A stretch of 64,000 nt of DNA from Sagittula sp. (GCA_042088665.1 JBELMB010000004.1:5054-69053); one strand, 5' to 3'. Numbered from the stretch's first letter, positions 2,841-33,879 are shown. Translations and numbers: made by a program. The notes: a model not told the origin generated them from the sequence alone.

Positions 2841-2933
2841 GTTGAAAGTCCCCTTCTAGAAACGTTTTTTGTCAGCCGCCGCAGTGGCCGCCGTTTCGGT
2901 CCGGCTTATGACGCCGATCCCGCTCTCCCTGTT

Positions 2934-2951
2934 CAGGCCCCGCGGGGCCTG
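2934..2951. repeat. 18-bp perfect GC-rich palindrome CAGGCCCCGCGGGGCCTG in the tssG-clpV spacer
   Basis: Read directly from the sequence. The palindrome is self-complementary over all 18 nt. Confidence 0.8.
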
Positions 2952-2958
2952 TCTGTGC

Positions 2959-3095
2959 GCGCTGCCGCTTCGCTGCGTGAGCGCTGGTTGCTTGCGCTGC
3001 CGCTTCGCTGCGTGAGCGCTGGTTGCTTGCGCTGCCGCTTCGCTGCGTGAGCGCTTGTTTGTTTGCGCTATCGCTTCGCTGCGTGAGCGCGTTAT
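2959..3095. repeat. tandem array of four copies of a 35-36-bp unit (GCGCTGCCGCTTCGCTGCGTGAGCGCTGGTTGCTT)
   Basis: Copies at 2959-2993 and 2994-3028 are identical. The copy at 3029-3064 is 36 bp and diverges at its 3-prime end. The copy at 3065-~3095 is degenerate and abuts or overlaps the tssG stop at 3092-3094. Each unit contains GCGCT...AGCGC inverted arms. Confidence 0.9.
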
Positions 3096-7482: not shown

Positions 7483-8075
7483 AGCTGCACCCGCAGTTTG
7501 GACATGCGCAGCTTGCCAGCGCCCAGATCAACCTCGGCGTCGAAATCCAGCGGGATGTCCACCGGGTCGCCCATCAGGTCGGCCGATACGAAAAGGTTCA
7601 TCCGCTGGTCCTTGCCGCCTTCGCCCCGTTTCACCGTCACCTCGATGGAATCGGGCACCAGCCGGGGTTCATGGTCGATCAGGCTTTGCTTGATGCTGTC
7701 GCGAATCGAGGCGGAGTTCAGATCCCGCAAGGTCACGCTGGACAGGTCGCGAAAGCCGTAGTTGAGGATCGAACTTGCCACATGCGGCGCATCCTTCATC
7801 GAAACAGCGGAATCGAGCCGGATGGTGTTCATCAATGCGTTCAGATCCGCCTCGATGTGGTGACGCAGCTGGTCCTCGCTGACCGCCTCGCGAAAATCGA
7901 TGCTACGGGTTTCCGTCACTTCGCCATCGCCGTCCAGCGTGCGCTTGGCGTGTTTCTTCTTGCGACGCTCATGATGGTGCGAGCGAAAAATCTGCATGAT
8001 CGACACCTTCGCGCGATCTTCCTTGCGCCAGACGCGGGTCACTTGCGTCGAAAGGTCCGAATCGTCGGAAGTCAT
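7479..8075 (-). CDS. tssE: T6SS baseplate protein TssE (gp25-like)
   Basis: The C-terminal two thirds resemble the gp25/TssE family (NYGFRDLSS...IKQSLIDHEPRL...LFVSADL). Its position between hcp and tssF supports the call. The N-terminal basic segment is longer than usual, so the true start could be the internal ATG near 7997. Confidence 0.8.
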   Translation of the reverse strand: MTSDDSDLSTQVTRVWRKEDRAKVSIMQIFRSHHHERRKKKHAKRTLDGDGEVTETRSIDFREAVSEDQLRHHIEADLNALMNTIRLDSAVSMKDAPHVASSILNYGFRDLSSVTLRDLNSASIRDSIKQSLIDHEPRLVPDSIEVTVKRGEGGKDQRMNLFVSADLMGDPVDIPLDFDAEVDLGAGKLRMSKLRVQL

Positions 8076-8149
8076 GTCACGCTCTCGGTAATGGATTGGT
8101 CCCGTTACAAAACGTAGCGGGCGGGATCAGAGCAATAAAGGAAAATATA

Positions 8150-8176
8150 CACGAAAAGGCGGGCCACTGGCCCGCC
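8150..8176 (-). terminator. rho-independent terminator after hcp
   Basis: Minus strand reads GGCGGGCC-AGT-GGCCCGCC (8-bp GC stem) followed by TTTTCGTGTATATTTTCC. It begins about 30 nt after the hcp TAA stop. Confidence 0.75.
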
Positions 8177-8205
8177 TCGGTTGCATGAGGGGAAGAGGAA
8201 CCCGC

Positions 8206-8703
8206 TTACAGCGTGGCTTCCTTGTTTTCCGCGATTTCCCAGCCTGCCGGGAATTCGCCGTCGGTGCCACCCTTCTGGTTCTGCTTGGTGTAGGTCACCT
8301 GGAACACGCGGAAGTTCAGGGTCAGGTTCTCCTGAACACGGTCCAGACCGTCCTTCATGCCGCCGGTGTTGTAGGACGTGATCATGACGTCCTTCAGCTT
8401 GATCTGCATGTACTTGACGGGCTTTGCGCCGCCAGCCTTGCGCACCACCAGCAGGCCGGTGTCGATGTGCTCGCCCGAGCAGCAGCGCTTGATCAGGTCA
8501 TGCGAAGCGGAGTCGACGTATTTGGTCAGAGCGATGTCACCAACGTCGACCTTGCCGCCGCCGCCGCCGCCGCCCATGTGGGTGGTGCCGGACTGGGACA
8601 TGCCCCAGGACCAGGACAGAACGTCAATCCAGTCCTTGTGATCCACGTCCTGGCATTCGCCCTTGATTCCGTTGCCGAGCTTCAAAAAGCAATCGATGGC
8701 CAT
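8206..8703 (-). CDS. hcp: T6SS tube protein Hcp (TssD)
   Basis: 165 aa. N-terminus MAIDCFLKLGNGIKGE...HKDWIDVLSWSWG and a poly-Gly loop (GGGGGGGKV) are typical of Hcp. GGAGAA RBS. Confidence 0.95.
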   Translation of the reverse strand: MAIDCFLKLGNGIKGECQDVDHKDWIDVLSWSWGMSQSGTTHMGGGGGGGKVDVGDIALTKYVDSASHDLIKRCCSGEHIDTGLLVVRKAGGAKPVKYMQIKLKDVMITSYNTGGMKDGLDRVQENLTLNFRVFQVTYTKQNQKGGTDGEFPAGWEIAENKEATL

Positions 8704-9122
8704 GATTCAGTTCTCCGTTTTTAATTGCACCGTCTTGGGCGGGTGCGGGTTAATGAATGGATTGCGCAGCCTGATAGTGGTCCCAGTTCAAGTGCGCTCG
8801 CGCTGTTCCAAATTTCCTGAGGCACACCGCGCGCGAAGCGGTTCCGGGTGATGCAGACGCTCTCCTTCTTGCCGTCTGCAGTCCCGGGCCAATCGGGAAT
8901 TTCGTGGTGAGGGGCGGGTTCCGCCCATCTCCGGTTTTCGTGTCGAGCGAGAATGTGACATCTGCTCCCGGATCCGCTGACTGTCTGACTTGGCCGAGGC
9001 CTGCTGTCTAAGCCGTTGTTTCCGTGTTGGGATAAAGATGATGCAGCTTGGTGATTCCCGCAAGGTAAGGCATTCCGTAAGTTCCGCCGCCGCGAGGTAC
9101 GTAAAGTGGCACGAACCGGGGG

Positions 9123-9171
9123 CAAAAATGACGGGGACCCCGGGCACAAGGCCCAGGGTCCGCGGCCTTGT
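9123..9171 (-). terminator. possible terminator/attenuator after tssC
   Basis: Minus strand reads ACAAGGCC-(10 nt)-GGCCTTGT, overlapping the tssC stop. A second GC-rich segment and ATTTTTG follow about 17 nt later. The geometry is not canonical. Confidence 0.3.
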
Positions 9172-10673
9172 CACTTTGCCGGCAGCTTCGACACAAGGCT
9201 CATGCCGATGTCCATGCCTTCCATCTGGAAGTGCGGCTTGAGGAAGAACTTGCCCTGATAGTAACCCGGGTTCAGCTCGTCCTCGACCACTTCGACCTTT
9301 GCACCCGCAAGCGGGCGCTTGGCCTTCTCCATTTCGGTGGCGGTATCCGGGTTGCCGGTCACGTATTTCATGATCCACTCTTGCAGATCCGCTTCCAGCT
9401 GCTGACGCGTCGGGCTGGTGCCGATCTTGTCGCGCACCATGACCTTCAGATAGTGGCTGAAGCGCGACACGGCAAAGATGTACGGAATGCGCGAGGACAT
9501 GTTGTCCGAGGCTGTCGCCAGATCATCCACGTATTTCTTTGGCTTGTAGAGCGACTGCGCCCCGATGAAGGCCGCCTTGTCGGTGTTCTGACGGTGGATC
9601 AGGCCGATCAGGCCCGCCGCCGACAGTTCGCCTTCGCGACGGTCGGTGATGGAGGCCTCGGTCGGGCATTTCATCTGCTTTTCGCCGTCCCCGGTGTCAA
9701 AGACGTGGGTCGGCAGGTTGGTCACTTCGCCACCCGACGTCACGCCGCGGATCCGAATCGTCCAGCCGTGCTCCTTGAAGGCGCGGTTGATGTTCGACGC
9801 CATCGCATGAGACGCGTTCATCCAGCCGTATTTCTTGCCGCCGTGGCCGTCGGTCTCTTCGCGGAAGTCGAATTCTTCCACCACGGAGGTGCTGTCCGGG
9901 CCATAAGGCTCACGCGCAAGGGCACGCGGCAGGGTCAGTGCGATAAAGCGCGACACTTCCGACTCCCGCAGGGAATTCCACTGCGCGTAATCCGGGTTGA
10001 GGAAGATTTCGGACAGGTCCGGCGGTGTTGCCACCTCGTTCCAGCTGTCCAGACCCAAAAGGGTCGGATCCGCGCCGGAGATGAACGGGCAAAGCGACGC
10101 CTCGGCGATTCGGCCCATGAAGCGCAGCATGTTCACATCAGCCGACGAGTGGTTGAAGTGGTAGTCGCCCACGAGGCAGCCAAAAGGCTGGCCGCCAAGG
10201 GTGCCCAGCTGCTGTTCATAGACCATCTGGAAGATCGGCGACTGTTCCCACTTGTTCTTGGGATAGCGCCGGGTCATCGCTGCCAGCTCTTTCTTGGAGA
10301 TGTTGAGAACCTTCACCTGAAGGCTCGCATCGGTCTCCGCGTTGTTGAGCGTGTAGGCGAGGCCGCGCCACTGCGATTCAAACTGCTGGAATTCCTCGTT
10401 GTGGAGGACAGCGTTCATCTGGTCGGTCAGCTTCTGGTCCAGCTTTGCCAGCATCGCGTCCAACGTGTCGATCACGTCTTCTTCGATGATGTTCTGGTCG
10501 TCCAGCGCCTCGCGCACCAACGTCACGAGCGCGTTGTCGACTTCGCGCTCTGCCACGTCGGTGCGTGGCTTGATCGTCTGTCTCAGGATGTCGGAGAATT
10601 CCGCAAGTTCGTTTACGGATTCGCCAACTGCGCCAGCGGCGCCCTGGGCTTCGAGTTCTGCATCATTTGCCAT
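9171..10673 (-). CDS. tssC: T6SS contractile sheath large subunit TssC (VipB)
   Basis: 500-aa ORF with the length and sequence pattern of TssC. It lies immediately downstream of tssB. Confidence 0.93.
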   Translation of the reverse strand: MANDAELEAQGAAGAVGESVNELAEFSDILRQTIKPRTDVAEREVDNALVTLVREALDDQNIIEEDVIDTLDAMLAKLDQKLTDQMNAVLHNEEFQQFESQWRGLAYTLNNAETDASLQVKVLNISKKELAAMTRRYPKNKWEQSPIFQMVYEQQLGTLGGQPFGCLVGDYHFNHSSADVNMLRFMGRIAEASLCPFISGADPTLLGLDSWNEVATPPDLSEIFLNPDYAQWNSLRESEVSRFIALTLPRALAREPYGPDSTSVVEEFDFREETDGHGGKKYGWMNASHAMASNINRAFKEHGWTIRIRGVTSGGEVTNLPTHVFDTGDGEKQMKCPTEASITDRREGELSAAGLIGLIHRQNTDKAAFIGAQSLYKPKKYVDDLATASDNMSSRIPYIFAVSRFSHYLKVMVRDKIGTSPTRQQLEADLQEWIMKYVTGNPDTATEMEKAKRPLAGAKVEVVEDELNPGYYQGKFFLKPHFQMEGMDIGMSLVSKLPAK

Positions 10674-10701
10674 GTATCAGGCTCCCTGTGTCCCGAGGCT
10701 G

Positions 10702-11208
10702 TCAGTCGTCTTTGTCGTCGCCGACCTGATCGCCGAGCGCCTTCAGCAGCTCGGGGTCGCTCAACAACTTCTTGATGTGTTCCTGCGCCTTCGGCTTGGA
10801 GCTCATGTACCGCTGCAACGAGGCCAGCTGTTCACGGGCTTCCAGCAGCTTTGCCATGGCGGGCACCTGACGCGCGATCTGCGTGGGTTCGAGATCGTCC
10901 ATCGAGTTGAACTTCAGATCCACGCCCAGCTTGCCGCCAGAGGGGTCGAGCTTGTTTTCCACGTGAAACGCCATGCCGGGCTCGATGGAGGCCATGTAAT
11001 CGTCCAGCGTGTCTTTGGTGACACCCTTGAACGTACGCTCTGTCACGTCTTCTTTTTCGACGCCGGGATTGTTGCCCGAGAGGTCGGACATCATGCCCAT
11101 GACAAAGGGCAGTTCCACCATTTTCTGGCTGTCATATGGATCTTGATAGGCAATCTGAACGCGTGGTGGGCGGTTGCGTTTGACGTAACCGGAGCCGGAA
11201 TCAGACAT
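10702..11208 (-). CDS. tssB: T6SS contractile sheath small subunit TssB (VipA)
   Basis: 168 aa. The segment PPRVQIAYQDPYDSQKMVELPFVMGMMSDLSG matches the conserved TssB N-terminal region. Confidence 0.93.
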   Translation of the reverse strand: MSDSGSGYVKRNRPPRVQIAYQDPYDSQKMVELPFVMGMMSDLSGNNPGVEKEDVTERTFKGVTKDTLDDYMASIEPGMAFHVENKLDPSGGKLGVDLKFNSMDDLEPTQIARQVPAMAKLLEAREQLASLQRYMSSKPKAQEHIKKLLSDPELLKALGDQVGDDKDD

Positions 11209-11356
11209 CTCAAATTCTCCCTGAAGTAAGGCGTGTTTGTTTGTTGTTGAAATTCAAACGTCAAGCGGACGCAAAGTCAACGAAAGAGATATGTTCAAAA
11301 TGGCGCGCACCCCAAACGGGCACGCCGCCAAACTAGGCCACCCTTCGCCGGTCAGG

Positions 11357-12700
11357 TCAATAGGCGCTGCCACTGGACTCGTCTTCCTTCGGAATCAGTT
11401 CCTCGATGATCGATTGGAAATCGCGGTCCAGATAGCTGCGCGCCCGCTGCAAGAGCGCGGGCACCGGGCTGGAGCGTTCGACCTTGCGGAAGTAATCCTC
11501 GACCGAACGGATCGTGCTCGCCGCGGCGGTGGCGTCAGGCACGTTGACCTCTGGCCCTTCTTCGGGTTCGGGCAGCGGGTTTTCGGGATCCTCGTGCATG
11601 TCCTCGGTCAGCGCCCGCAACCGCGAGATCCCCATGGCAAAGCCGGTGTCGTCGCTGAAATTGACAACCGCCTGTTCGACATTGTCGGGCAGCAGCGTTT
11701 CCAGCGCCTCCAGCAGCGGTTTGCCGATCAGGGAACGCGCCTGCGTGACCAGAAGCAGCGTGGCCGAAGAGGGCTCATAGGCGCGGTAGTAGGCCTCGCA
11801 GGCCTCCAGCATGCGGCGCGCGTGGACATGGCTGACCACGGCTGTGGTGCCAACCTGCGCCGCTGCCGCCGCCATGCCGCCGCCGGATCCTTCGCCGCCG
11901 CCCTCAACCTCGGCGGGGGCCTCTTCGACAGGGGCAACAGCCGCTGCCAGATCCGAGTTGGCGCTGGTGATCGCCTCGATCATGTCATTGATCGTCTCGG
12001 TGAACAGGCTCAGTTCCGGCGTGAATTTCGCGCTCTCGCTGCTCTCGCAGGCGGCCACGATCCGATTGCGGGCATCGCGGATCGCCAGCAACGAGTTGAG
12101 CGTCTTTTCCACGTCCTTGGCGTTCTGGACAGAGCCGAGCGCATCAAGGATCGGCCCCTGTTCCAGGTCCGCTTCGGATTGCAACGGGCTCATCTCGCCG
12201 CGCACCACTTTGAGTTTGCGCAGAGAGGCGTCGCCGGTGGGCGTCAGCCCGACAAAGCACAGCGGCTGCACCACGGACGTGTTGTCGTTCAGGTCGCTGA
12301 ACATGGTGCGCCGGTCACCGGCGTCCTGCGGGTGCACGTCGCTGTCGAATGTTTCCAGCAGGGCCGCCAGCCATTCCATGCATTCGGCGAACTTGACAAG
12401 GTTGCCCGACATGATGGCCCATTGTCCGCGCAGCAGCACAAGGCGCAGGTCCTTGGTGCGTCCCAGAACCGGGTCGATCAGTTTGCATTCGTCACGAAAG
12501 TTGACTGTCTTGGGGTCAAAGACAGTGTCCGCCGTCATCGAGCCGTCTGGCTTTTCCACGCCGGGCCGGTAGTAGTACTCCGGCATCTCGCCCATACGGT
12601 CGAAATAGGCGCTGTCGTAGTCAAAATCGCCCTCGGGTTCGAGATCGGGCCCACAGGGGGCATCCTCCGAGATCGGTGTCAAAAGCTTTTCGAGATCCAT
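11357..12700 (-). CDS. tssA: T6SS protein TssA (ImpA N-terminal domain)
   Basis: 447 aa. The N-terminus (LLTPISEDAPCGPDLEPEGDFDY) is the ImpA_N signature. Its position upstream of tssB supports the call. Confidence 0.88.
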   Translation of the reverse strand: MDLEKLLTPISEDAPCGPDLEPEGDFDYDSAYFDRMGEMPEYYYRPGVEKPDGSMTADTVFDPKTVNFRDECKLIDPVLGRTKDLRLVLLRGQWAIMSGNLVKFAECMEWLAALLETFDSDVHPQDAGDRRTMFSDLNDNTSVVQPLCFVGLTPTGDASLRKLKVVRGEMSPLQSEADLEQGPILDALGSVQNAKDVEKTLNSLLAIRDARNRIVAACESSESAKFTPELSLFTETINDMIEAITSANSDLAAAVAPVEEAPAEVEGGGEGSGGGMAAAAAQVGTTAVVSHVHARRMLEACEAYYRAYEPSSATLLLVTQARSLIGKPLLEALETLLPDNVEQAVVNFSDDTGFAMGISRLRALTEDMHEDPENPLPEPEEGPEVNVPDATAAASTIRSVEDYFRKVERSSPVPALLQRARSYLDRDFQSIIEELIPKEDESSGSAY

Positions 12701-12745
12701 GACGGCCCCCCTTGATATGTGTCACCCTCTGACGGGGCGTAGCAA

Positions 12746-14362
12746 TTATTCCCGGTGCACGTTGGCCTCGGCATAGGCGCGCGCAAAGGCTTGCAGGAAG
12801 GCATCGAGAATGCCGTGTTCCCCGGCCTGGGCCTTGCTGTCCCAGCGTTCCACATAGGCCTGCCACAGCTTGGCCGCGCCGCCCCCGCCCCCAAAGAGGT
12901 TGGACCCGGTGCCGTCGCAGGCGGCTTCGATCTCTTCGGGGGACAGACCGCCAAAAACCTCGGCCAGCGCCGGTTGCAGCGCGCGGAACACGGCCTCCTG
13001 ATGCAGGCGGATGTCCTTGAGCGCATCGTCAAAGCTGTCCGCCCCCATCATGAAACCGTCGCGCGGGGCGACGAACATCAGTTCCAGCGCCTGCTGGCTG
13101 TCGGGCATGAATTTCATCGGGTTGTTGGCATTGGCCGACAACATCGTCCGCACGCCGCCGCGGGTAAAGTTCTTTACGTCGGCGCGCGCCTTGAGCATCA
13201 GCATGATCTCTTCGGTGGCGATCCGCGAACACCGGCCCAGCATGTGCATCAGGCCAATGGCATCCTCGGGCTTCAGCGCATTGGGATCCAGCCCGGCGCC
13301 TTCGCAAAAGGCGCGTAGGGCCGCCGTGACATCCCCGCCCTGTCCGCCACCCTGTGCACCGGGCGTTGCGGGGGCTGCAGCGGCTATCTGCGATGCCGCC
13401 TCTGGCAATGGCCCCGGTGTCGAAACCGGGCTGGGCACGGGCGAGGGGATCGGTGCCGACGTGGGCCGCGGCATCGGTGCGGCGGGTGTTGGTTCCCCCA
13501 GGGATCGGGGCGCGGGCGAGTCGAACTCATCCTGCGGCGGAGATGCCGGGGGCGCAGAGGGGATCTCTGCCACCGGTGCAGGCTCCGGCGGTGTGTCTTG
13601 ACCCAATGTCGGCACATAGGCAGGCGTCAGCGCGGGCTCCGGCGCGGCCGGAATCGGCGGAGGCGCCGGTGGGATCGGCAAACCACCCGGGGCCGCGGGG
13701 GGCACCGCATCGGTCTGGGCGGGGGTCTGGGGCGGGGTTTGGGGCGGGCCTGCAGGCACCTGCACGCCGGGGGTTTGCATGCCCGGAGTTTGCACACCGG
13801 GCATGCCGCCCTGCGTGTACATGGGAATCTGCAACGAGTTTTCTGTCTTCAGGCCCGGCTGCGCGCCCGGCCCGGTCTGCAATCCGCGTGGCCCACCCGG
13901 CAGTGGCACGAACCCTCCACCAAGGTCGTCCAGCGATCCCCCGGGGGACATGGGCCGCGACGGTGGCGGCGCCACCGGTTCGGACGGCCCCGGAAAGACG
14001 TCCCATTCATCCGGTCCCCCCGCAGCGACCTGCGGCTGCGCGCTGGGCAGGTCAACGGCGATGATGTAGTGACCCACGATCAGCCGTTCACCGCCGCGCA
14101 GCGCCAACTCGCCCTGAATGCGGTGGCCCTGGCCGTCCACAAAGGTGCCGTTGGTGGAGACATCCGTCAGCAGGTAGATGCCATCCCGGAACGTGACATC
14201 GAAATGGTGGCCAGAGATCATCTTGCTCGGGTCCGGCAAGGTCCAGTCCATCGACCCGCGCCGGCCAATGCTTGCGCCATGGCCGTCGAGCTGCAGCCAG
14301 GTTGGTCCGCCTGTCTCCAGCTGGTCAAAGTTCTCGATTCGCAAAATCAGTGTCATCGGCAC
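12746..14362 (-). CDS. tagH: T6SS-associated FHA-domain protein TagH (Fha)
   Basis: N-terminal FHA domain (GRRGSMDWTLPD...ISGHHFDV...YLLTDVSTNGTFV). A Pro-rich linker follows, then a C-terminal region like the TagH C-domain. Confidence 0.88.
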   Translation of the reverse strand: MPMTLILRIENFDQLETGGPTWLQLDGHGASIGRRGSMDWTLPDPSKMISGHHFDVTFRDGIYLLTDVSTNGTFVDGQGHRIQGELALRGGERLIVGHYIIAVDLPSAQPQVAAGGPDEWDVFPGPSEPVAPPPSRPMSPGGSLDDLGGGFVPLPGGPRGLQTGPGAQPGLKTENSLQIPMYTQGGMPGVQTPGMQTPGVQVPAGPPQTPPQTPAQTDAVPPAAPGGLPIPPAPPPIPAAPEPALTPAYVPTLGQDTPPEPAPVAEIPSAPPASPPQDEFDSPAPRSLGEPTPAAPMPRPTSAPIPSPVPSPVSTPGPLPEAASQIAAAAPATPGAQGGGQGGDVTAALRAFCEGAGLDPNALKPEDAIGLMHMLGRCSRIATEEIMLMLKARADVKNFTRGGVRTMLSANANNPMKFMPDSQQALELMFVAPRDGFMMGADSFDDALKDIRLHQEAVFRALQPALAEVFGGLSPEEIEAACDGTGSNLFGGGGGAAKLWQAYVERWDSKAQAGEHGILDAFLQAFARAYAEANVHRE

Positions 14363-14411
14363 CAGTTAACCAATCTTGGACACGCAGGGCCAGTGGCGCT
14401 GCAGATCAAAT

Positions 14412-15014
14412 TCAACGGATCCGGAAAAGCTCTGACGTTTGGTCGATAAATCGCTGCAGGCGCACCGGACGCTGCTGCAGTTCGGCCCGCGCCAGACTGG
14501 ACAGCACGGCGGAATTGATCGCGCGCGGTGCGCGGTGCACGGGGACCTGCGCGGTGTCGTTGGGCGCAATCGGCCCGCCGGACCAGCCCACCGCCAGCCC
14601 GAGAAAGACCGCCGGGCTGCGCTGCGGTGCGAAAAGCGCGCGGTGCATCACCTGATAGCGATTCTCGTTGTCGGAGTAGCTGCACCATTTGGCCACCAGT
14701 TCCATAAGCTCGCGGTCTGCATGGCTCATGTCATCGCTGGCCACGCGCAGACACTCATAGGCCCACCAGATCGCCATCGGTGGCACCGCTGCAAAGGCCG
14801 CGAAGGTGACCGCCTCTTCGGGGGTGGTGGATCCCGCAAGTCGCTGCAGGTAGGCGAGGTTGTCCTCGTCATCGCGTGGGCGGTGCTGGGTCATGTGCTT
14901 GACCTGCGGCATCGCGCCATAAAGTTCGAACGGGGTCTCGTAACGCAGCGCCGACATGGGCGGCTGCGTCTTTTCGGTTTCCTCGTCGTCGATGTCTTGC
15001 ACGTCGCTTGCCAT
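14412..15014 (-). CDS. uncharacterised protein, first gene of the T6SS operon
   Basis: 200-aa ORF, same strand, 49 nt upstream of tagH. Acidic N-terminus and no signal peptide. From memory it resembles a DUF (possibly DUF6931-type) seen next to T6SS loci. This has not been verified. Confidence 0.6.
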   Translation of the reverse strand: MASDVQDIDDEETEKTQPPMSALRYETPFELYGAMPQVKHMTQHRPRDDEDNLAYLQRLAGSTTPEEAVTFAAFAAVPPMAIWWAYECLRVASDDMSHADRELMELVAKWCSYSDNENRYQVMHRALFAPQRSPAVFLGLAVGWSGGPIAPNDTAQVPVHRAPRAINSAVLSSLARAELQQRPVRLQRFIDQTSELFRIR

Positions 15015-25276: not shown

Positions 25277-25930
25277 TCAATTCCCGCTTTGCGAAAAGTG
25301 CTGGTAGTCCTTCAACGACGACCAGTCGCCGCCCCACCCCCAGCCGCGCGCCTTGAACGCCCGCACGACCACATCCCCCGAACGGATCACGCCCGGCACA
25401 TCCGCACCACGCTCGCCGCTGTCGTCATAATCCTGCCCCGCGACCGGAGACGTCTTGCGCGCCGTCACGAAAGGGTTGTGAACCGGGTTGATGTCCACTG
25501 CGAGGCCAAAGGCGTGTTGCGACATGCGGTTGCTGCCTCCCACGCGGCGACAGTTGAAGGCAGAGGTGTTGTTGGCGGCCATGGACATGCCATCGTCACC
25601 GGCAAATTCATGCACCAGCCGCATGCTCTGGATGGGAAAGCCGGCCGCGTGGATCTCTGCGAAAACATCCAACACGTCCTCGGCCACATCGCTGGCGACG
25701 ATCAGCGCACCAAGGCGCGTGTCACCATAGAAATCGACAAAGGGAACCGTCAGCAAGCTGAGCGCCTCGCGCGCCGGACAATCGAGATGGCTGTGCCAAC
25801 TCACGCCCTGCATCTTCGCCCAGATGTCGTCCGGGATGGGGGCCTGCGTGCCACGCTCCGGTGTCTGCGCCAGCGTGGCAGAGCCTGCCAGAGCCATCAC
25901 CGCGCCCACGTTTCTGATCTGCTGCCACAT
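25277..25930 (-). CDS. secreted M15-family peptidoglycan metallopeptidase (VanY-like)
   Basis: SQHAFGLAVD motif (SxHxxGxAxD). The start is placed at MWQQIRNVGAVMALAGSATLAQ, a signal peptide, rather than at the ORF-track start 26128. Confidence 0.75.
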   Translation of the reverse strand: MWQQIRNVGAVMALAGSATLAQTPERGTQAPIPDDIWAKMQGVSWHSHLDCPAREALSLLTVPFVDFYGDTRLGALIVASDVAEDVLDVFAEIHAAGFPIQSMRLVHEFAGDDGMSMAANNTSAFNCRRVGGSNRMSQHAFGLAVDINPVHNPFVTARKTSPVAGQDYDDSGERGADVPGVIRSGDVVVRAFKARGWGWGGDWSSLKDYQHFSQSGN

Positions 25931-26040
25931 CCCGTGCGTCCTTTTGTCGGCATCATCTGTCGCCAGTAAAGGCTGACGCAGAGGCGCGCTCAAGTCACGG
26001 ATCCCTGACCCGCATCCGGCGGGAGATTGCCGAAAGATCC

Positions 26041-27465
26041 TCAGTCCAGCAGGAACTTGCGGCTGACAAAGCCCGCGCGATTTTCCGAATCGCGCACTTC
26101 GTACCACAGGATATTTGCAGCGATGCACCGCTTTACCCGCGCGTCTTCCTCCGTGTCCGCCGGGTCGAGCGCCACGGCGTCACAGGCCTCAAGGCAGCGC
26201 TCCGCGACGCTTTCGTCGCCGGGGGTGCGCAGGCTCTGGGTGCCGATGACCCGCAACCGCTCCCCAAGGGGGACCTGTCGCAGCACCGGAGCAGAGAATC
26301 CGGCCTCCTCTCGCAGGTTCACATATTCCGAGACGTTGACCACGGTCACCTCCGGTCGCAGCACCCAGCAGCGGTCCAGCGCGGTCTCGGTCAATGCGGC
26401 GCGCGCCCGGTCCCCCAGCGCCGCCACATAGGTCGCTTGTGCGTCGGGCTCGGGCAGGGGCAAGTCCTCAAGGCGGTGGTCGGCAGGATAGAGCATATAG
26501 GCTTGCAGGGGCGCAGCCTCAGGCGTGGCAAAGGGCCGGAGTGGCTGCCGGATCTCTCCCAGCGGGGCTGTGCCGGTCCCGTCGCGCAGGTCCAGCGCAC
26601 AGGGCGCGCCGGTGCTGCCGTCGTCGCGCAGGGCCACCGTGCCCTCACCCAGCCCGACAAAGCGGAACGCAGTGGGGGTCTGCGCATCTGGCAGGTCTTC
26701 GGGGTGCAGATCCTCGCGGGCCGCGCGGGCGTTCAGGCACGCAAGGCGAAAGGCGCCGTCGTCATCCGTTTCGGGCAGGTCCACGGGGGCCACTGCAATG
26801 CCCCAGCGCGCCGCTTGCCCAACGGTGGCGACCGCGGTCATCCCGCCGGGCGGTGTCCCCAACAGCGCGTGCAACAGCGAATCAGGAAACAACAGATCCC
26901 GGCGCGTGCGCAGCACAACCACTTCGGCAAGGGCAGACAGCGCGCGGCGATAGGCCCGGGCGAGGGCCTGCGGATCGTCACCCGCCGATCCGTCCGGCAC
27001 ATCCAATGGCGGCGCATGAAATCCCAAAAGCCCGCGCGGATGCAGCACGCGGTCGGGCCGCGTGCCCCCGTCGTCGCGGGCGACTCCCGCCATGAAGATC
27101 ACGGCGCAGGGGCCGGTGCACCGCGCCCCACGCGCAACTGCCGCGCCCCATCCGCGACCGGCCAGCGCCTCGGCCAACCGCGTCGCTTCGAGCATGTCAC
27201 CCATGGCGCTGTCGAGGCAAAGCCGCCTTGGCGCCTGCGTCCCGGATGCCTGCCTGTCGATGAAATCCAGCGCCACGGCCAGCGCCTCTGCATCGCCCTC
27301 GGTGATCTCTCCGCGCAGATGCAGCGCACAGCCCATCTCGGCCTCGCCTTCATCGGCATCCCCAAGATCCGCGGCCTGTACCGCGCCGCACAGCGCCAGA
27401 GCCACAACCGCCACGGTTCGGGCAGCAATGGGCCAAATCAAGAGACGTCGAAGCAGTGCCATCAT
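26041..27465 (-). CDS. secreted hypothetical protein with a C-terminal SH3-like region
   Basis: The internal start MMALLRRLLIWPIAARTVAVVALALCGAVQA gives a signal peptide. The N-terminal part resembles periplasmic ClpP-fold proteins (recollection). The C-terminal ~100 aa look SH3b-like. Confidence 0.55.
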   Translation of the reverse strand: MMALLRRLLIWPIAARTVAVVALALCGAVQAADLGDADEGEAEMGCALHLRGEITEGDAEALAVALDFIDRQASGTQAPRRLCLDSAMGDMLEATRLAEALAGRGWGAAVARGARCTGPCAVIFMAGVARDDGGTRPDRVLHPRGLLGFHAPPLDVPDGSAGDDPQALARAYRRALSALAEVVVLRTRRDLLFPDSLLHALLGTPPGGMTAVATVGQAARWGIAVAPVDLPETDDDGAFRLACLNARAAREDLHPEDLPDAQTPTAFRFVGLGEGTVALRDDGSTGAPCALDLRDGTGTAPLGEIRQPLRPFATPEAAPLQAYMLYPADHRLEDLPLPEPDAQATYVAALGDRARAALTETALDRCWVLRPEVTVVNVSEYVNLREEAGFSAPVLRQVPLGERLRVIGTQSLRTPGDESVAERCLEACDAVALDPADTEEDARVKRCIAANILWYEVRDSENRAGFVSRKFLLD

Positions 27466-28140: not shown

Positions 28141-28455
28141 TCAGCCTTTCCAGGGTTCGATGCGGGCAATCTGCTGGATTGAACCCGAGAACATGCCCAT
28201 GTGGCCATTGCTTTGCGCAGAAAAGATCCCCTCGATCAGCATCACCTGTCCATCGTGCTGCACCAGATCGCGCATGCCGATGCTCAGCCAGACGGCATTC
28301 TTCGAGATATACTGCGTGCGGTATTCCTGAGCGGCCCACACGGCGTTGCCTTCAAATTCGAACGAACACAGGCCCACGACACGCACCGCTTGCCCGTCGT
28401 ACATTTCGGGTGTGCCAATCAGGGCATGCACCGCCACGGGTTCGAAACTGCTCAT
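28141..28455 (-). CDS. small cytoplasmic protein, paralog A of a tandem pair (candidate immunity protein)
   Basis: 104 aa from ATG 28455, with a GAGGAAA RBS (the ORF track starts at GTG 28458). Shares motifs with paralog B: VxGLCxF, WAAxE, MLIEGxFSA, SGSIxQIxRI. Confidence 0.75.
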   Translation of the reverse strand: MSSFEPVAVHALIGTPEMYDGQAVRVVGLCSFEFEGNAVWAAQEYRTQYISKNAVWLSIGMRDLVQHDGQVMLIEGIFSAQSNGHMGMFSGSIQQIARIEPWKG

Positions 28456-28478
28456 CACGTCTTTCCTCTGGTTTGGGT

Positions 28479-28955
28479 TTATCGGGTCGGTGCTGTCTGT
28501 GGCAGGGTGTCTTCACTGCTGTCAGAGGGGTTGTAGCGTTTGATCACACCCGTTGGTGTAGACACGTAGACGGGCGCATTGTTCGAATCGCCAAATCTGC
28601 GGTCCGCATTCGAAAAGTTCTCACTGTCGTATCGCGGGTCGGGGCCACCGTGTGTGTGCCAGACCGCGACGTCACTGGCACCTTTGGGACCCGGATCGGC
28701 GCTGTCTATATCACCGGCCACTGGCGCGCGCGGCGTGAAGGTGCCGTCGCCATTGTCCTGAACCCAACCTGCGGTCTCGCTGTTGGAGGCCACGGAGCCG
28801 GGGTTTTCATGTTGCATGGCCGCGACGGCCGCATCCTCGGCCGAGCCATAAGACTTTTCGTATGGGGTCGCCGCGTTGCAACCGCTCACACAGCCACCGG
28901 CTTCTGATCCACCATTGTTGGCGGCTGGCGGGGTCGATTCCTTTTCGCCGCTCAT
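28479..28955 (-). CDS. DUF4329-like protein (candidate toxin/effector component)
   Basis: The start at ATG 28955 forms an ATGA overlap with the upstream gene's stop. The core (SAEDAAVAAMQ...ETAGWV...WHTHGG...ENFSNAD...VYVSTPTGVIKRY) matches my recollection of the DUF4329 pattern found at Rhs/YD C-termini. Confidence 0.7.
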   Translation of the reverse strand: MSGEKESTPPAANNGGSEAGGCVSGCNAATPYEKSYGSAEDAAVAAMQHENPGSVASNSETAGWVQDNGDGTFTPRAPVAGDIDSADPGPKGASDVAVWHTHGGPDPRYDSENFSNADRRFGDSNNAPVYVSTPTGVIKRYNPSDSSEDTLPQTAPTR

Positions 28956-29722
28956 AGCGGTTGTCCCTCTGCATGGCGCGTCAGGACGGCTTCGAGCCAG
29001 ATCCGCGACTTGCGTTCGACCTGCGCGATTCGGGCATCTGCATTGGCCGGACCGGGCTGGTAGAGGGTCTTGGCGATCCACGGATACAGCGGATCAGAGA
29101 TGCAGCCATGGCCAAAGGCCAGCATCAGCGACATCATCACCCAGTCCGACCAGCGCGCCTGCGCGCCCAACCGTCCGGTCACGCCACGCGCGCGCAGCGT
29201 CAACCGGCCAAAGCTCAGCCGGCCCATATGTGCCAGCTTCTCCGGAAAGATCTGCTGAAAGGTCGCATGCATGGCGTCGAACTCGGTCGGATGCGCGCCC
29301 ACTTCTGGCGGTGCCTTGAAATCCACAAGGGCCTGCAACGCCTTCATGACGTTCTCGCCTTCGGGTCCGGCGACGGTCTTGGTGTACTCCAGCGACAGCT
29401 TGTGCAGGTCTTCGGCACGGGCCATTTCCTTGCCGCCGCTGCGCAGCGGCGGCGCGTAGAGTCGGTATTGCGGGTCGGTGTCGAAATAGCTGCCGCGCAA
29501 CAGCGACAGTTCAATGAACAACCGGATGGGACCGCGCAGGGTGAAACCATAAAACCTTGCACGTTCAATGCTGTTTTGCACAAAGGCATTCACGCCTTCG
29601 TTGCCCAATGTCTTGCACAGGGCCGGGGAAAATTCCCAGCAGTGGTGTCGCATCTCGGCTTCGAAATGGGCCGCGACAACCTGGTCGAATTCTGCAATTT
29701 GTTCGCGTTTGATTGTGATCAT
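28952..29722 (-). CDS. hypothetical protein (256 aa), first gene of the operon divergent from vgrG
   Basis: Long ORF with good coding look. Translationally coupled to the DUF4329 gene. No recognisable family and no signal peptide. Confidence 0.7.
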   Translation of the reverse strand: MITIKREQIAEFDQVVAAHFEAEMRHHCWEFSPALCKTLGNEGVNAFVQNSIERARFYGFTLRGPIRLFIELSLLRGSYFDTDPQYRLYAPPLRSGGKEMARAEDLHKLSLEYTKTVAGPEGENVMKALQALVDFKAPPEVGAHPTEFDAMHATFQQIFPEKLAHMGRLSFGRLTLRARGVTGRLGAQARWSDWVMMSLMLAFGHGCISDPLYPWIAKTLYQPGPANADARIAQVERKSRIWLEAVLTRHAEGQPL

Positions 29723-29914
29723 GGGCGGATGTCTACCACAAGGAGGCGGGCGCCGAGAGTATTGAAATTATGACTTTAAAAGAAGGCCACAGTCCTCATA
29801 TGGTAGCCCACAGCGAATGTTTTTTCAAATAGGCATTGCACGGGCAACGGGTTTTTGACGTTGCTCGGGGGCATGTCTGGGGTACACTCACTTTAGATCA
29901 CGTCAGGTTCACCG
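29723..29914. promoter_or_regulatory. divergent promoter region between the unknown operon and vgrG
   Basis: 192-bp comparatively AT-rich spacer between two divergently oriented start codons. No specific promoter motif could be assigned. Confidence 0.4.
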
Positions 29915-32251
29915 ATGCCTTTTAAACAAGATCTCCGAATGGGGCAGTTGAAGACCACGCTTGGTCCGGACGCCCTGGTGCTGCAACGCTTCGAAGGCGT
30001 GGACCGGATGAACGGTCTGTTCGACTACCATGTTGCGTGCCTTTCTGCCGATCCAAATGTCGATTTCGACGCCCTGCTGGGCACCCATGCCACCGTCAAA
30101 CTGATTGGTCAGGACGGGGCGGACAACTTCTTTGACGGGCTGGTCACAGAGGCGCGCTGGATCGGCGATGGCGATGGCGGCAGCCGCTATGAACTGGTGC
30201 TCCAGCCCTGGTTCTGGCTCACGACACTAAAGCGCAACCAGAGGATTTTCCACGAAAAAACGGTGATCGAGATCCTGCAGGAACTGCTGCAGCCCTATGG
30301 CTCTGCCGGCAGCGTGGTCGTGCAGTGCAACGAGACCTATCCGACGCTGGAATACACCGTTCAGTACCGGGAAACGGATTTCAACTTTGCCTGCCGGATG
30401 ATGGAACGGCACGGGATCAGCTATCACTTCAAACAGTCGGACGGCGCCCATGACATGGTGCTGACCGACAGCGCCGAAGTGCACACAGCCCACGGTGATT
30501 TCCCGGTAAAGCCCTATGTCGGCCACCATCAGGAAGACAAGGAACACCTCTGGGAATGGCGGCCCGAGCGGCGCATGGTCACGGGCGCGATCCGCATGAC
30601 GGATTACAACTTCAAGACGCCGACCGTCGCGATGGAGAAGGACCAGCAAGGCACGGCCTCTTATGAACACGGCCAGATCGAGAGCTTTGACTGGCCGGGC
30701 GACTACCTCGATCCGGGGCGCGGCGCCCAGTTGGCGCAGCTGCGGCTGAAGCGCGAACAGGGTCAGGACAAGCGCTACGAATCGCTTGGCGACATCACCG
30801 GTCTGCGCGCGGGCCTGAAGATCACCATCGCAGGCGACAGCGAGAATGTGCCCGGCAAGGGAGAGGACTTCCTCTGCCTCGTGGCGCACCACAGCTATAC
30901 CTCCGACAACTACCGCTCCGGCGGGACGGCTGGCGACGGGTTTGCCTATACGGGGCGCTACGTCTTCATGCCCGCGACCGCGCCCATGGCGCCGGACCTC
31001 AAGACCCGGCATGCGGATGTGCGCGGGCCGATGACCGCCGTGGTGGTGGGGGCCGAAGGCGAAGAGATCGACTGCGACGAACATGGCCGCATCCTTGTGA
31101 TGTTCCCCTGGGACATCAATCAGTCGGTGTCGATGCGCTGCCGCGTGGCCCAGAACTGGGCTGGCGGCGGCTGGGGCGGCATGATCGTGCCCCGCATCGG
31201 CATGGAGGTGCTGGTCGAGTTCCTCAACGGCGACCCGGATTTCCCGCTGGTCACCGGCTGTGTCTACAATGGGCGCAACATGGCGGCCTATCCGCTGCCG
31301 CAGCACAAGACCAAATCGGTCTTTCGTACCGACACGCACAAGGGCAACGGCTTCAACGAAGTGGTCTTTGAGGATGAACTGGGCGAAGAGCACATCGCCT
31401 TCAAGGCGCAAAAGGACATGTCGCGGCTGGTGCTGAACGATTCGATCAGCCGGGTGAAACGGCATGACATCGAATCGGTCGGGGCCAACAAGATGGTCGA
31501 GGTCGGCAACAACTTCAAAGTGGACGCAGGCGGCTCGGTGAACTTTACCGTTGGCGGCACCGGCCCGCAGGCAAAACAGCTGCTGAGCGGTCTGTCCGGG
31601 CTCGCCGGCAAGACCAAGACGCTGATCAGCCAGGGCCTGTCCAAGGGCGGTGGCAGTTCCGGCGGCGGGGCCGGGAAATGGTCGAGCTCTGTCGGCCAGT
31701 CAAAGCTGGGCTTTATCGGCGGCGAGGGCAGCTCTGGCCGCAGCGGGATGCGCGACGCGGATGAGACCGGGTCGGACGGCAACCACAAGCTGCGCGAAGA
31801 CGGCACCAAGCTCGGCCAGAGCGGCTACAGCCTGTTCGAGACCCCCGGCACGATGAACACCATGGCGTCGAACTTTCGGTCTGACACCACCGGCGTGGCC
31901 TCCGCGGAACAGGTCGGCGTCACCAAGGTGTTGAACGTCGGCGGCGCGCTGATGGAACAGGTCGGCAAGGAGATGCACACAACCGTCGGCCAGAAGCAGA
32001 CAAACACCGTCGGCCAGTCGATCCTGAACCAGACGATGAAGCACACGCTGATCGCGACGCAGAAATTCACCATCGCAGCGCCCGGCGGCTCGATCGAGAT
32101 CGACATGAGCGGCATGACGATCAAGGCCTTCCAGCTGAAGATCCTGTGCCCCTCGGTGGACTTCAACCCGGGCGCGCCGAGTCAGGCGGCGGTCCTCATG
32201 GCGCAGCAAGCCTTTGCAGAACAATGCCAAGGCACGGCGGGGAACAACTGA
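29915..32251 (+). CDS. vgrG: T6SS spike protein VgrG
   Basis: 778 aa. Contains a gp27-like N-terminal region, a gp5 OB-fold/beta-helix region (VAQNWAGGGWGGMIVPRIGMEVLVEFLNGDPDFPLVTGCVYN), and a C-terminal repeat region. Confidence 0.95.
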   Translation: MPFKQDLRMGQLKTTLGPDALVLQRFEGVDRMNGLFDYHVACLSADPNVDFDALLGTHATVKLIGQDGADNFFDGLVTEARWIGDGDGGSRYELVLQPWFWLTTLKRNQRIFHEKTVIEILQELLQPYGSAGSVVVQCNETYPTLEYTVQYRETDFNFACRMMERHGISYHFKQSDGAHDMVLTDSAEVHTAHGDFPVKPYVGHHQEDKEHLWEWRPERRMVTGAIRMTDYNFKTPTVAMEKDQQGTASYEHGQIESFDWPGDYLDPGRGAQLAQLRLKREQGQDKRYESLGDITGLRAGLKITIAGDSENVPGKGEDFLCLVAHHSYTSDNYRSGGTAGDGFAYTGRYVFMPATAPMAPDLKTRHADVRGPMTAVVVGAEGEEIDCDEHGRILVMFPWDINQSVSMRCRVAQNWAGGGWGGMIVPRIGMEVLVEFLNGDPDFPLVTGCVYNGRNMAAYPLPQHKTKSVFRTDTHKGNGFNEVVFEDELGEEHIAFKAQKDMSRLVLNDSISRVKRHDIESVGANKMVEVGNNFKVDAGGSVNFTVGGTGPQAKQLLSGLSGLAGKTKTLISQGLSKGGGSSGGGAGKWSSSVGQSKLGFIGGEGSSGRSGMRDADETGSDGNHKLREDGTKLGQSGYSLFETPGTMNTMASNFRSDTTGVASAEQVGVTKVLNVGGALMEQVGKEMHTTVGQKQTNTVGQSILNQTMKHTLIATQKFTIAAPGGSIEIDMSGMTIKAFQLKILCPSVDFNPGAPSQAAVLMAQQAFAEQCQGTAGNN

Positions 32252-32847
32252 TGACGGACGTTGTGGTGCATATGTCCGATCCGGCAGAAAGCCCGGACGA
32301 GGCGCTGGCAACCGCGCTTCTGAAAGCGCGGCGCGAAGGCCAGCAGGTCTATTTGCTGGTGGATGCCAGCCGCTCTCCGGCGATCCAGTTCGTGATCGAG
32401 ACGCTGACCGACGAGGGGCTGTGCCTCTTTGATGGACAGGCCTTCGAGGATCTGTCGGGCTTTGCGCCGTGGCTGGTGCCCCTGTCGCTTGAGAACGACG
32501 GCGTGTTTTCGTGGTTCATGGACAACGGCTGGGGCAAGGACTGGGGCCTGTTCCTGATTGCCGGAACGGATGCGCGGCGGGTGAAAACCTCGCTGAAGCG
32601 CGCTCTGCGGGTGCAGACCGAAGACAATCAGGAATTGTTCTTCAAATTCTACCGACCCGGTGTCTTCAACACCTACCTGCCCGCGCTTGAACCGCAGCAA
32701 TCGGTCTATGTGATGCGCGACCTCGTGCAGGTCTGGGCCGAAGATGCCGACAACCCGGCGCTTGTGCACCGTTTCGCCGTGCGCGAGGGAACGCTGCGCC
32801 GGGCCGATCTGATGCTGAACGTGGTCGATGAGGTCGCGGAGGCCTGA
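32251..32847 (+). CDS. DUF4123-family T6SS adaptor/chaperone
   Basis: 198 aa. The ATG shares one base with the vgrG TGA stop (TGATG). Motifs VYLLVDASR, LFDG...FAPWLVPL and FFKFYRPGVF fit the DUF4123 pattern. Confidence 0.82.
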   Translation: MTDVVVHMSDPAESPDEALATALLKARREGQQVYLLVDASRSPAIQFVIETLTDEGLCLFDGQAFEDLSGFAPWLVPLSLENDGVFSWFMDNGWGKDWGLFLIAGTDARRVKTSLKRALRVQTEDNQELFFKFYRPGVFNTYLPALEPQQSVYVMRDLVQVWAEDADNPALVHRFAVREGTLRRADLMLNVVDEVAEA

Positions 32848-32894
32848 GCGCCGCACCGCAGCTTTCGACACCACAGAACATACAGGAGAGAAAC

Positions 32895-33239
32895 GTGGGA
32901 CAACCGGTCTGCTGCATGGGTGACATGCACATCTGCAACATCACAATCCCGCCCACCCCGGTCTCTCCGGCGGTCAAACACCTTGGGGGACCCGTGGTCC
33001 AGCCGGGGCAGGCGATTGTCCGGATAATGGGGCGCCCGGTGGCCGTGGTCTCCGGCATGACCATCTGCATGAACCTGATCACCCCGCCCGGCGCGCCGCC
33101 GGTGCCGACCCCCGACCCGATGGTCAAGGGCTCCATGATGGTGCGCATCACGAGCCTGCCGGTGATGCGGATCTCCGACATGTGCTCTCACGGTGGCACC
33201 ATGTCGACAGGCAACCCGATGGTGAAGATCGCCATGTGA
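32895..33239 (+). CDS. PAAR-domain spike-tip protein (no toxin extension)
   Basis: 114 aa. GTG start with an AGGAGAG RBS. Three PAAR-like repeats (GDMHIC, PVAVVSGMTIC, PVMRISDMCSHGG). Confidence 0.85.
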   Translation: MGQPVCCMGDMHICNITIPPTPVSPAVKHLGGPVVQPGQAIVRIMGRPVAVVSGMTICMNLITPPGAPPVPTPDPMVKGSMMVRITSLPVMRISDMCSHGGTMSTGNPMVKIAM

Positions 33240-33316
33240 TCCCCCGCGTCCCGGACCTGCACGGCAGGGCAGGGCGCGCCTCGGTTGACAGCCAGCGACA
33301 GAACCGCTTTACGTAA

Positions 33317-33346
33317 CGCCGCCCGCCGATCCGGGCGGCGATTTTC
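33317..33346 (+). terminator. rho-independent terminator ending the vgrG-DUF4123-PAAR operon
   Basis: CGCCGCCCG-CCGATC-CGGGCGGCG (9-bp stem) followed by ATTTTC. Confidence 0.7.
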
Positions 33347-33357
33347 ATCAAAGAGGT

Positions 33358-33879
33358 TTGTCCATGTCGCTGCGTTCCTTCGCTTTTGCTGCTTTCGGGC
33401 TGTTCGCCGCAGCACCCGCCCTGGCCCAGGATGCCGTGGCCAATGGCGCCCGCTTTGGTGCATGGACGGTCTCTTGCGAAGCCTTGGGCAAGGATCGCAC
33501 CGCCTGCGTCCTCGTCCAGCGCCTGAACCGCGACAGCGACGGGGCGTTCATCGCGCAGATGCTCGCCTTCTGGTCGGCAGACGGGACCAAGGCCTATGTC
33601 GGCGCCCGCGTCCCGACGGGCGCTTACCTGCCCACGGGTTTCGCCATTCAGGCCCCCGGCGCAGAGCAAAGCGTGCCCTTCATCTGGCAGTCCTGCAATG
33701 GCACCATCTGCGAAGCCCTGCGCGAGATCGATGTCGAAGCGATGGGGGCCTTTGACACCACCGAGGGCGCAGTTCTGGGCCGTTTTCGGCCACGTCTGGG
33801 GATGGAGCCGCTGGTGTTCAGCTTCTCCATGCAGGGCGTGACCGACGGATTGGTGGCACTGTTTCCCGACAGCGAGTAA
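33358..33879 (+). CDS. invasion-associated locus B (IalB)-family secreted protein
   Basis: Signal peptide (FAAFGLFAAAPALAQ). FGAWTVSCE...CVLVQRL and ...SCNGTICEA patterns are typical of IalB-like proteins. Confidence 0.8.
   Translation: MSMSLRSFAFAAFGLFAAAPALAQDAVANGARFGAWTVSCEALGKDRTACVLVQRLNRDSDGAFIAQMLAFWSADGTKAYVGARVPTGAYLPTGFAIQAPGAEQSVPFIWQSCNGTICEALREIDVEAMGAFDTTEGAVLGRFRPRLGMEPLVFSFSMQGVTDGLVALFPDSE

Follow-up and report, generated by a model that had tools for sequence, protein, structure and literature searches.

A short DUF4123 adaptor in the type VI secretion spike operon of a Sagittula genome and its probable partner, a divergently encoded cargo cassette

The window, the whole stretch of 64,000 nucleotides of DNA from Sagittula sp. 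(GCA_042088665.1 JBELMB010000004.1:5054-69053) that was analysed, carries a vgrG-DUF4123-PAAR operon of a type VI secretion system (T6SS) in which the DUF4123 adaptor gene is not followed by an effector gene. On the basis of sequence comparisons and structural models, this adaptor is probably one part of a split system resembling TecT/co-TecT, with its cargo encoded as a cassette in a separate transcription unit. The first-pass annotation had proposed, among other explanations, that the cargo is encoded elsewhere, for example in the operon divergent from vgrG, and comparative genomics strongly supports this proposal: positions 28479-29722 encode a widespread DUF4123-associated helper and a Tox-JAB-2 toxin.

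In the proposed mechanism, the vgrG-DUF4123-PAAR trio would be a constant loading platform on the sole T6SS spike and the cassette would be exchangeable. By analogy with characterized adaptors, the DUF4123 N-lobe would dock on the C-terminal tail of VgrG; the helper, as co-adaptor, would supply the detached effector-binding lobe in trans and would hold the toxin through an N-terminal tag of ~28 residues, its likely handle, and the two ~105-aa proteins encoded after the toxin would protect the producer cell. The contacts of DUF4123 with the VgrG tail, of DUF4123 with the helper and of the helper with the tag are presumed, as is a transcript end at the hairpin that follows the trio. The genes and the region concerned are as follows.

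29915-32251, plus strand: vgrG, 778 aa (Pfam Phage_GPD at 1.2e-73, Phage_base_V and Gp5_trimer_C)
32251-32847, plus strand: short DUF4123 adaptor gene, 198 aa (Pfam PF13503 over residues 33-150, 82.5 bits, gathering cut-off 25.8)
32895-33239, plus strand: minimal PAAR tip gene, 114 aa (PAAR_motif over residues 29-103, 48.2 bits, cut-off 27)
28952-29722, minus strand: helper gene, 256 aa, all-helical, starting 192 bp from vgrG
28479-28955, minus strand: cargo toxin gene, 158 aa (Tox-JAB-2, DUF4329, PF14220), with the N-terminal tag MSGEKESTPPAANNGGSEAGGCVSGC
28141-28458, minus strand: candidate immunity gene 1, 105 aa
27795-28109, minus strand: candidate immunity gene 2, 104 aa
29723-29914: divergent intergenic region between the helper operon and vgrG, 192 bp, with a low GC content of about 52%
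93-15014: main T6SS cluster (ClpV, TssG, TssF, TssE, Hcp, TssC, TssB, TssA, Fha and DUF6931)

The spike operon and its half-length adaptor

DUF4123 adaptors are two-lobed proteins: the N-lobe, conserved and alpha/beta in fold, binds VgrG at a C-terminal motif, and the C-lobe, helical and variable, binds the effector (Colautti 2024, PMC11582642). In TecT/co-TecT, the two lobes are naturally encoded by different open reading frames (ORFs) (PMC11582642). In the cryo-electron microscopy structure of Tap3-Tke5, Tap3 residues 1-198 form the N-domain and residues 199-302, a bundle of five helices, form the C-domain (PDB 9r8g; bioRxiv 10.1101/2025.07.04.663240). The AlphaFold2 (AF2) model of the window DUF4123 protein, with a predicted local distance difference test score (pLDDT) of 91.4 and a predicted template modelling score (pTM) of 0.88, is alpha/beta up to its C-terminus and terminates in beta-strands E158-188, with no helical bundle. 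A Foldseek search of the PDB with this model returned Tap3 (9r8g_B) as the top match and the only one at E <= 0.001 (E 1.2e-4, prob 1.00, TMq 0.57, 185 of 290 columns), and a profile of the short DUF4123 proteins aligns to Tap3 residues 70-179. Given its length of 198 aa, its alpha/beta model and its sole significant match to Tap3, the protein is, as modelled, a Tap-type adaptor that consists of the N-lobe only. No effector gene lies immediately downstream of it; the PAAR gene, a hairpin and a gene for an IalB-family protein come next. The expectation of the first-pass annotation that an adaptor is encoded immediately upstream of its effector is valid for full-length adaptors but fails here, where the N-lobe alone is present.

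The remainder of the operon is that of an ordinary spike. Pfam identifies no toxin domain in VgrG, which scores 485 bits against NCBIfam TIGR03361 and is 73-76% identical to its orthologues in Sagittula and in the related metagenome locus L010. The ATG of the DUF4123 gene overlaps the TGA of vgrG as ATGA, and through this overlap the gene is, as read from the sequence, translationally coupled to vgrG. The spacer between the DUF4123 and PAAR genes measures 47 bp, leaving no room for an intervening gene, and the PAAR gene begins with a GTG start codon preceded by AGGAGA. The PAAR protein has no C-terminal extension or toxin part in Pfam or in the alignment of its orthologues, and is 85-89% identical to the PAAR proteins of Sagittula and L010. 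The earlier descriptions of a trio without a toxin gene of its own and of a minimal 114-aa PAAR protein are therefore both borne out, by the Pfam results, by the short spacer and by the IalB gene that comes next. A profile search of the whole 5.66-Mb assembly returned one Phage_GPD, one DUF4123 and one PAAR match, and so the trio is the sole spike set of the sole T6SS, of which TssK, TssL, TssM and TagF are located on a separate contig.

A further candidate for the cargo, VgrG itself in evolved form, was rejected: residues 550-778 consist of a Gly/Ser-rich linker, ordinary beta-helix repeats and a short tail, and are kept whatever the cargo. The linker, at residues ~548-645 (31556-31849), is of low complexity and joins the gp5-like domain to the C-terminal beta-helix.

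The VgrG tail, ...KILCPSVDFNPGAPSQAAVLMAQQAFAEQCQGTAGNN, holds two cysteines, a feature reported for Tap-binding VgrG tails (PMC11582642), and its pattern, ...LCPSVDFNPGAPxQxxVLxAxQAFAEEC..., is kept among relatives irrespective of their cargo. This conservation bears on the earlier suggestion that the adaptor has been repurposed for the PAAR protein; in such a role it would be a chaperone or recruiter with PAAR as its only client, in the manner of TecT and PAAR4. DUF4123 and PAAR genes adjoin in many loci, and TecT does bind a PAAR protein; TecT, however, uses a C-terminal extension of PAAR4, whereas the window PAAR is a minimal 114-aa domain that has none to bind and is for this reason a less likely dock than the VgrG tail. 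The internal Pro-rich insert of the window PAAR, NLITPPGAPPVPTPDP, is common to Sagittula and L010 but missing in Thetidibacter and in L014, a locus that carries the same cassette. The suggestion thus finds no specific support, and PAAR as the only client is improbable.

The divergent cassette, its helper family and the cargo tag

The whole divergent operon spans 29722-27795 and comprises four genes. The helper has no family match in Pfam or NCBIfam, neither candidate immunity protein has a match in Pfam, and NCBIfam holds no family for the toxin or the immunity proteins. The toxin matches Pfam PF14220 at 76.1 bits (cut-off 28.6, E 2.7e-21). In polymorphic toxin systems, DUF4329 corresponds to the toxin domain Tox-JAB-2; the domain is found in association with T6SS and Rhs proteins and carries the motif E...H[ST]H...S...D (PMC3482391), and Rhs-DUF4329 effectors have been described (PMC10469887); the window toxin contains WHTHG and SENFSNAD, in agreement with this motif. 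Its start codon, placed at the ATG at 28955 by the orthologue in L014, overlaps the stop codon of the helper gene as ATGA, and the toxin gene is, on sequence, translationally coupled to the helper gene. The candidate immunity proteins are paralogues that are 44% identical to each other. The helper gene is single in the genome and adjoins the spike set. The region between the two operons (29723-29914) probably holds divergent promoters, a minus-strand site at 29828-29800 being promoter-like, and its part from 29755 onward is kept in L010, which has no cassette.

The helper belongs to a family of >326 homologues of ~256 aa, and its association with DUF4123 genes was assessed at 80 helper loci from a scan of 185,579 species genomes, 78 of which could be evaluated for a DUF4123 gene within 6 kb. 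These loci come from Alpha-, Beta-, Gamma- and Deltaproteobacteria, Acidobacteriota, Verrucomicrobiota, Planctomycetota, Nitrospirales, Bacteroidales and others. Pfam detects DUF4123 in 22 of 73 first-upstream and 11 of 69 second-upstream ORFs of the helper, PAAR or PAAR-like domains in 10 first-upstream ORFs (a count made with Pfam only), and VgrG in 4 first-upstream and 11-14 second-upstream ORFs. With an iterated hidden Markov model (HMM), a DUF4123-like gene is found at 6 kb or less from the helper in 49 of the 78 loci; in 26 the helper follows it immediately in the same orientation, and in 8 the two genes are on different strands, which is the arrangement of the window. The adaptors linked to helpers are mostly 133-233 aa long. 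One locus (L017) has the order PAAR-DUF4123-helper-DUF4329-immunity on a single strand, two (L018 and L019) have VgrG-PAAR-DUF4123-helper-effector, and another (L020) is an orphan cassette, while several show vgrG-DUF4123-PAAR-helper-effector, which is the trio order of the window with the cassette downstream instead of divergent. For the helper as the missing lobe, this genetic linkage is stronger evidence than structure.

The AF2 model of the helper (pLDDT 93.8) has eleven helices. Foldseek aligned it to Tap3 (9r8g_B) over 111 columns with a root-mean-square deviation (rmsd) of 2.5 A and prob 0.98, yet with an E value of 2.1 and without reporting the aligned residues, and because of this E value and the missing residue ranges the structural match is suggestive only. 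No other PDB match of the helper has a low rmsd, nearly all values being about 11-45 A, and a profile search against PDB sequences returned nothing meaningful. Two tandem copies of a helical module of ~100 residues make up the helper (hhalign aligns residues 18-118 with 146-248 at prob 98.4% and E 1e-14), and the module is roughly the size of the Tap3 C-domain. Relatives with a single module (116-138 aa) are seen in other cassettes, at L008 11359-11709 and possibly at L005 10588-11004; the 116-aa protein of L008 aligns with the N-terminal module of the helper at hhalign prob 86% and E 5e-6.

In most helper loci, the ORF 3' of the helper begins at -3 relative to the end of the helper gene, and across the 80 loci these downstream ORFs share an N-terminal stretch of ~28 residues, MS..K..TPP...G.GG.PA......C, which the window toxin matches with MSGEKESTPPAANNGGSEAGGCVSGC. 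The bodies behind this tag are diverse and include DUF4329, PAD, Gln_deamidase_2, SLT, M6 and M91 peptidases and Big_2, and of the 74 ORFs that come after a helper, most have no match in Pfam. A conserved tag in front of varied bodies is a pattern typical of a delivery marker. A wider reading, offered tentatively, is that the helper family and the tag constitute an undescribed, phylum-spanning system of co-adaptor and marker, in which a generic N-lobe DUF4123 protein is fixed on the spike and interchangeable helper-toxin-immunity cassettes act in trans from any position. Such positions would include the divergent upstream site, the junction between DUF4123 and PAAR, the downstream site and an orphan site elsewhere, and, if this reading is true, the empty, divergent and inserted states of the backbone are a natural record of cassette exchange.

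Cassette states among relatives and the 3' end of the operon

No orthologue of the window DUF4123 protein was found in 60 GTDB relatives, and the synteny set was drawn from a protein search that returned Sagittula, Thetidibacter and metagenomic homologues. DUF4123 identity to the window protein is 76% in L010, 71% in Sagittula, 67% in L014 and 63% in Thetidibacter (58-77% among close homologues overall). The backbone occurs in three states. In the first (L010 and L011), genes for an M15_4 peptidase and an SH3_3 protein diverge from vgrG-DUF4123-PAAR-IalB and there is no cassette; the DNA of the window aligns with that of L010 over 25281-26956 and resumes from 29755, and the interval of 27.0-29.75 kb with the four-gene cassette is therefore an insertion or deletion. 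In the second (the window and L014), the cassette of helper, DUF4329 toxin and two immunity genes is divergent from vgrG-DUF4123-PAAR-IalB, and the L014 proteins are 73.5% (helper), 73% (toxin), 65% and 50% (immunity) identical to those of the window. In the third (two Sagittula genomes, CP021914.1 and CP155732.1), a 2.7-kb cassette lies exactly between the 3' end of the DUF4123 gene and the start of the PAAR gene, and the window aligns with Sagittula DNA over 29853-32831 and 32896-33831. This cassette encodes a 138-aa protein, a WHH/Colicin-DNase nuclease, a SUKH immunity protein and a D123-like protein; the 138-aa protein resembles the helper weakly (hhalign prob 24%, E 9e-4), less well than does the 116-aa protein of L008.

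The M15_4 peptidase and the SH3_3 protein were themselves considered as cargo and rejected, as conserved backbone genes that are present also in L010, where no cassette is found. The vgrG gene of L014 is broken into three ORFs (7516-10001) on a contig labelled with 2x coverage, which probably reflects assembly errors and not a pseudogene. The last gene of the Sagittula cassette, in the interval from SUKH to PAAR (L005 12438-13235; L015 12452-13189), encodes a D123-like or R2K ATP-grasp-like protein of 245-265 aa, an unusual member for a T6SS cargo cassette. In Sagittula stellata and L010, the trio adjoins repC-parB-parA of a repABC replicon (106-kb and 348-kb records; L015 14319-17971, L010 9366-13081), whereas no rep genes lie nearby in the window, and the module therefore resides on replicons of differing types.

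The comparison with relatives had been suggested earlier as a check for an effector between DUF4123 and PAAR, and one lineage, Sagittula, does carry one there. Since this four-gene cassette occupies exactly that junction, the site accepts cassettes, and a cassette once present in the window could have been deleted, leaving an orphaned adaptor beside an unrelated divergent cassette. Such a loss is improbable. Direct adjacency of DUF4123 and PAAR is the majority arrangement (the window, L010/L011, L014, Thetidibacter, L008/L009 and L012), and as the commonest one it makes the Sagittula insertion look derived; about 10 distant loci have the order DUF4123-PAAR-helper; the 47-bp spacer of the window contains no gene remnant and a tblastn search for the Sagittula cassette proteins was negative in the window genome; and the helper family is linked to DUF4123 on its own account. 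With an intact cassette next door, the loss of the effector, which the first-pass annotation had also put forward, is disfavoured.

Several results weigh against a split adaptor. The match of the helper to Tap3 is not significant at E 2.1, and its assignment as the C-lobe draws on secondary-structure type and length only; in 29 of the 78 helper loci the iterated HMM detected no DUF4123-like gene at 6 kb or less, and the helper may therefore also act without DUF4123 or at a distance from it; bare trios without a nearby cassette occur in L010 and Thetidibacter, where DUF4123 may act without a helper, and the helper was not found anywhere in the Thetidibacter genome; and DUF4123 identity does not track the cargo, being higher in L010, which lacks the cassette, than in L014, which shares it. 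This last pattern fits a generic N-lobe but is no proof of one. The cassettes without DUF4123 and the bare trios could also be read as signs of a generic, cargo-independent spike, on which the helper loads directly onto VgrG or PAAR and DUF4123 serves in spike assembly or PAAR handling or is vestigial, and the Nannocystis loci, where the helper comes right after VgrG, point the same way. A spike of this kind is nevertheless unlikely, because the frequency of DUF4123 near the helper (immediately 5' of it in 26 loci, at 6 kb or less in 49 of 78) greatly exceeds what chance would give for a gene that occurs once per genome, because the DUF4123 gene is intact, 58-77% conserved in close homologues and coupled to vgrG, and because orphan cassettes are expected where the adaptor acts in trans. 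One orphan cassette that fits action in trans lies on the chromosome of Sagittula stellata, far from any vgrG (L101 1501-3277), and encodes a 247-aa helper-like protein (E 6e-12 to helper residues 1-135), a 189-aa protein with AHEAYH (HExxH) and a 133-aa protein. The split adaptor thus remains the preferred reading of the locus.

At the 3' end of the trio operon are two further features, listed here with the IalB genes of related loci.

33317-33346, plus strand: GC-rich hairpin with a short U-run, a candidate terminator of the trio operon (the stem-loop itself at 33317-33340)
33364-33879, plus strand: gene for an IalB-family exported protein, 171 aa (Pfam IalB 3e-12, signal peptide)
IalB genes in related loci: L005 13728-14252; L010 8793-9308; L014 11026-11541; L007 7047-7550

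The hairpin with a 9-bp stem that the first-pass annotation had noted is present, with 9 G-C pairs, a 6-nt loop and a fold of -25.7 kcal/mol (z = -3.36 against shuffles). A hairpin followed by TTT stands at the same position in four of five orthologous spacers, including those of Sagittula (two strains) and L010 but not that of L014; covariation is not significant with only 5 sequences. Since the U-run 3' of the stem is only 4 nt (AUUUUCAUCA), a role of the hairpin as terminator is plausible and no stronger than that. The gap from the end of the hairpin to the IalB ATG is 18 nt.

With so short a U-run and so small a gap, transcription might continue past the hairpin into IalB, and IalB might then work with the trio, whether as its cargo, as an immunity protein or as an accessory factor, especially as it adjoins the trio in five related lineages (3' of PAAR in four and 5' of vgrG in Thetidibacter). 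There is very little chance of this. With its Sec signal peptide, the IalB protein would not join a spike that is loaded in the cytoplasm; nor does it belong to a T6SS effector type, and it is not the cargo. Its position 5' of vgrG in Thetidibacter is beyond the reach of any read-through, IalB was not found near the helper or DUF4123 loci of distant taxa, outside the clade, and a promoter-like TTGACA lies between PAAR and the hairpin. The window IalB gene is the sole close IalB copy in the genome, and a functional link between IalB and the T6SS is possible, without an explanation at hand.

The TTGACA lies within a palindrome. In Sagittula (L005 about 13646-13663), a perfect 14-bp palindrome, TTGACAGCTGTCAA, stands between PAAR and the hairpin, and it occurs twice in L010, within 8630-8735; the window version, GGTTGACAGCCAGCGACAG at 33283-33300, is degenerate. 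The palindrome might serve the IalB gene as an operator or as a -35 element, in which case the hairpin would fall within the IalB leader.

Large proteins of 1042-1412 aa that carry Sec signals and end in ...RLQF are encoded directly 5' of tssK in two relatives (L010 13760-17395; L007 11064-15302), and homologues are present on other contigs of the window genome (C103 and C260). The 1211-aa and 1412-aa proteins beside TssK in L010 and Thetidibacter were considered as DUF4123 cargo and rejected, as their Sec signal peptides and ...RLQF ends make them look autotransporter-like.

Implications and comparison with known adaptor systems

Pipelines for effector discovery take DUF4123 as a marker and then examine one or two genes 3' of it (PMC7714669, PMC11582642). 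In the window and its relatives, a whole subfamily of half-length adaptors departs from this next-gene rule, with the cargo behind an unannotated helper and sometimes on the other strand or elsewhere in the genome. Once the helper and the cargo tag are recognized, many T6SS toxins that now lack annotation would come to light. As one backbone occurs empty, with a divergent cassette and with an inserted one, it lends itself to clean comparisons on whether adaptor lobes act in trans and on how cassettes are exchanged.

The Sagittula loci have a backbone orthologous to that of the window (VgrG 73%, DUF4123 71%, PAAR 85% and IalB 62% identical). Unlike the window, they carry their cassette between DUF4123 and PAAR and none 5' of vgrG, and their nuclease lacks the TPP...G.GG tag. 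Among characterized systems, the full-length adaptors Tap3 (of Tap3-Tke5), Tap6 and Tap14 (PMC11582642) and Tap-1 of V. cholerae (PMC4557670) resemble the window in that the DUF4123 gene directly follows vgrG. The window adaptor shares the alpha/beta N-lobe fold of Tap3, and its VgrG has a tail with two cysteines like the partners of Tap-type adaptors; full-length Tap and Tec adaptors, however, have a helical C-lobe of their own and an effector gene next, whereas the window adaptor has neither and is followed by PAAR and the hairpin.

The TecT/co-TecT/PAAR4/TseT-TsiT module of Pseudomonas aeruginosa, in which TecT docks on the C-terminal extension of PAAR4 (Burkinshaw et al. 2018, as described in PMC11582642, PMC6560169 and PMC6684961), offers the nearest parallel. 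Common to both are a DUF4123 protein cut down to its conserved lobe, a co-adaptor in an ORF of its own that is linked to DUF4123, precedes the effector gene and is presumed to bind the effector, a small PAAR gene, and a stand-alone toxin followed by immunity. The window differs in that its PAAR lacks such an extension, which leaves the conserved tail of VgrG as the likelier dock, in that adaptor on the one hand and co-adaptor and cargo on the other are encoded in two divergent transcription units, and in that the cargo carries a conserved N-terminal tag; the helper, of an unannotated family, is likened to co-TecT (PA3905) by arrangement and not by sequence.

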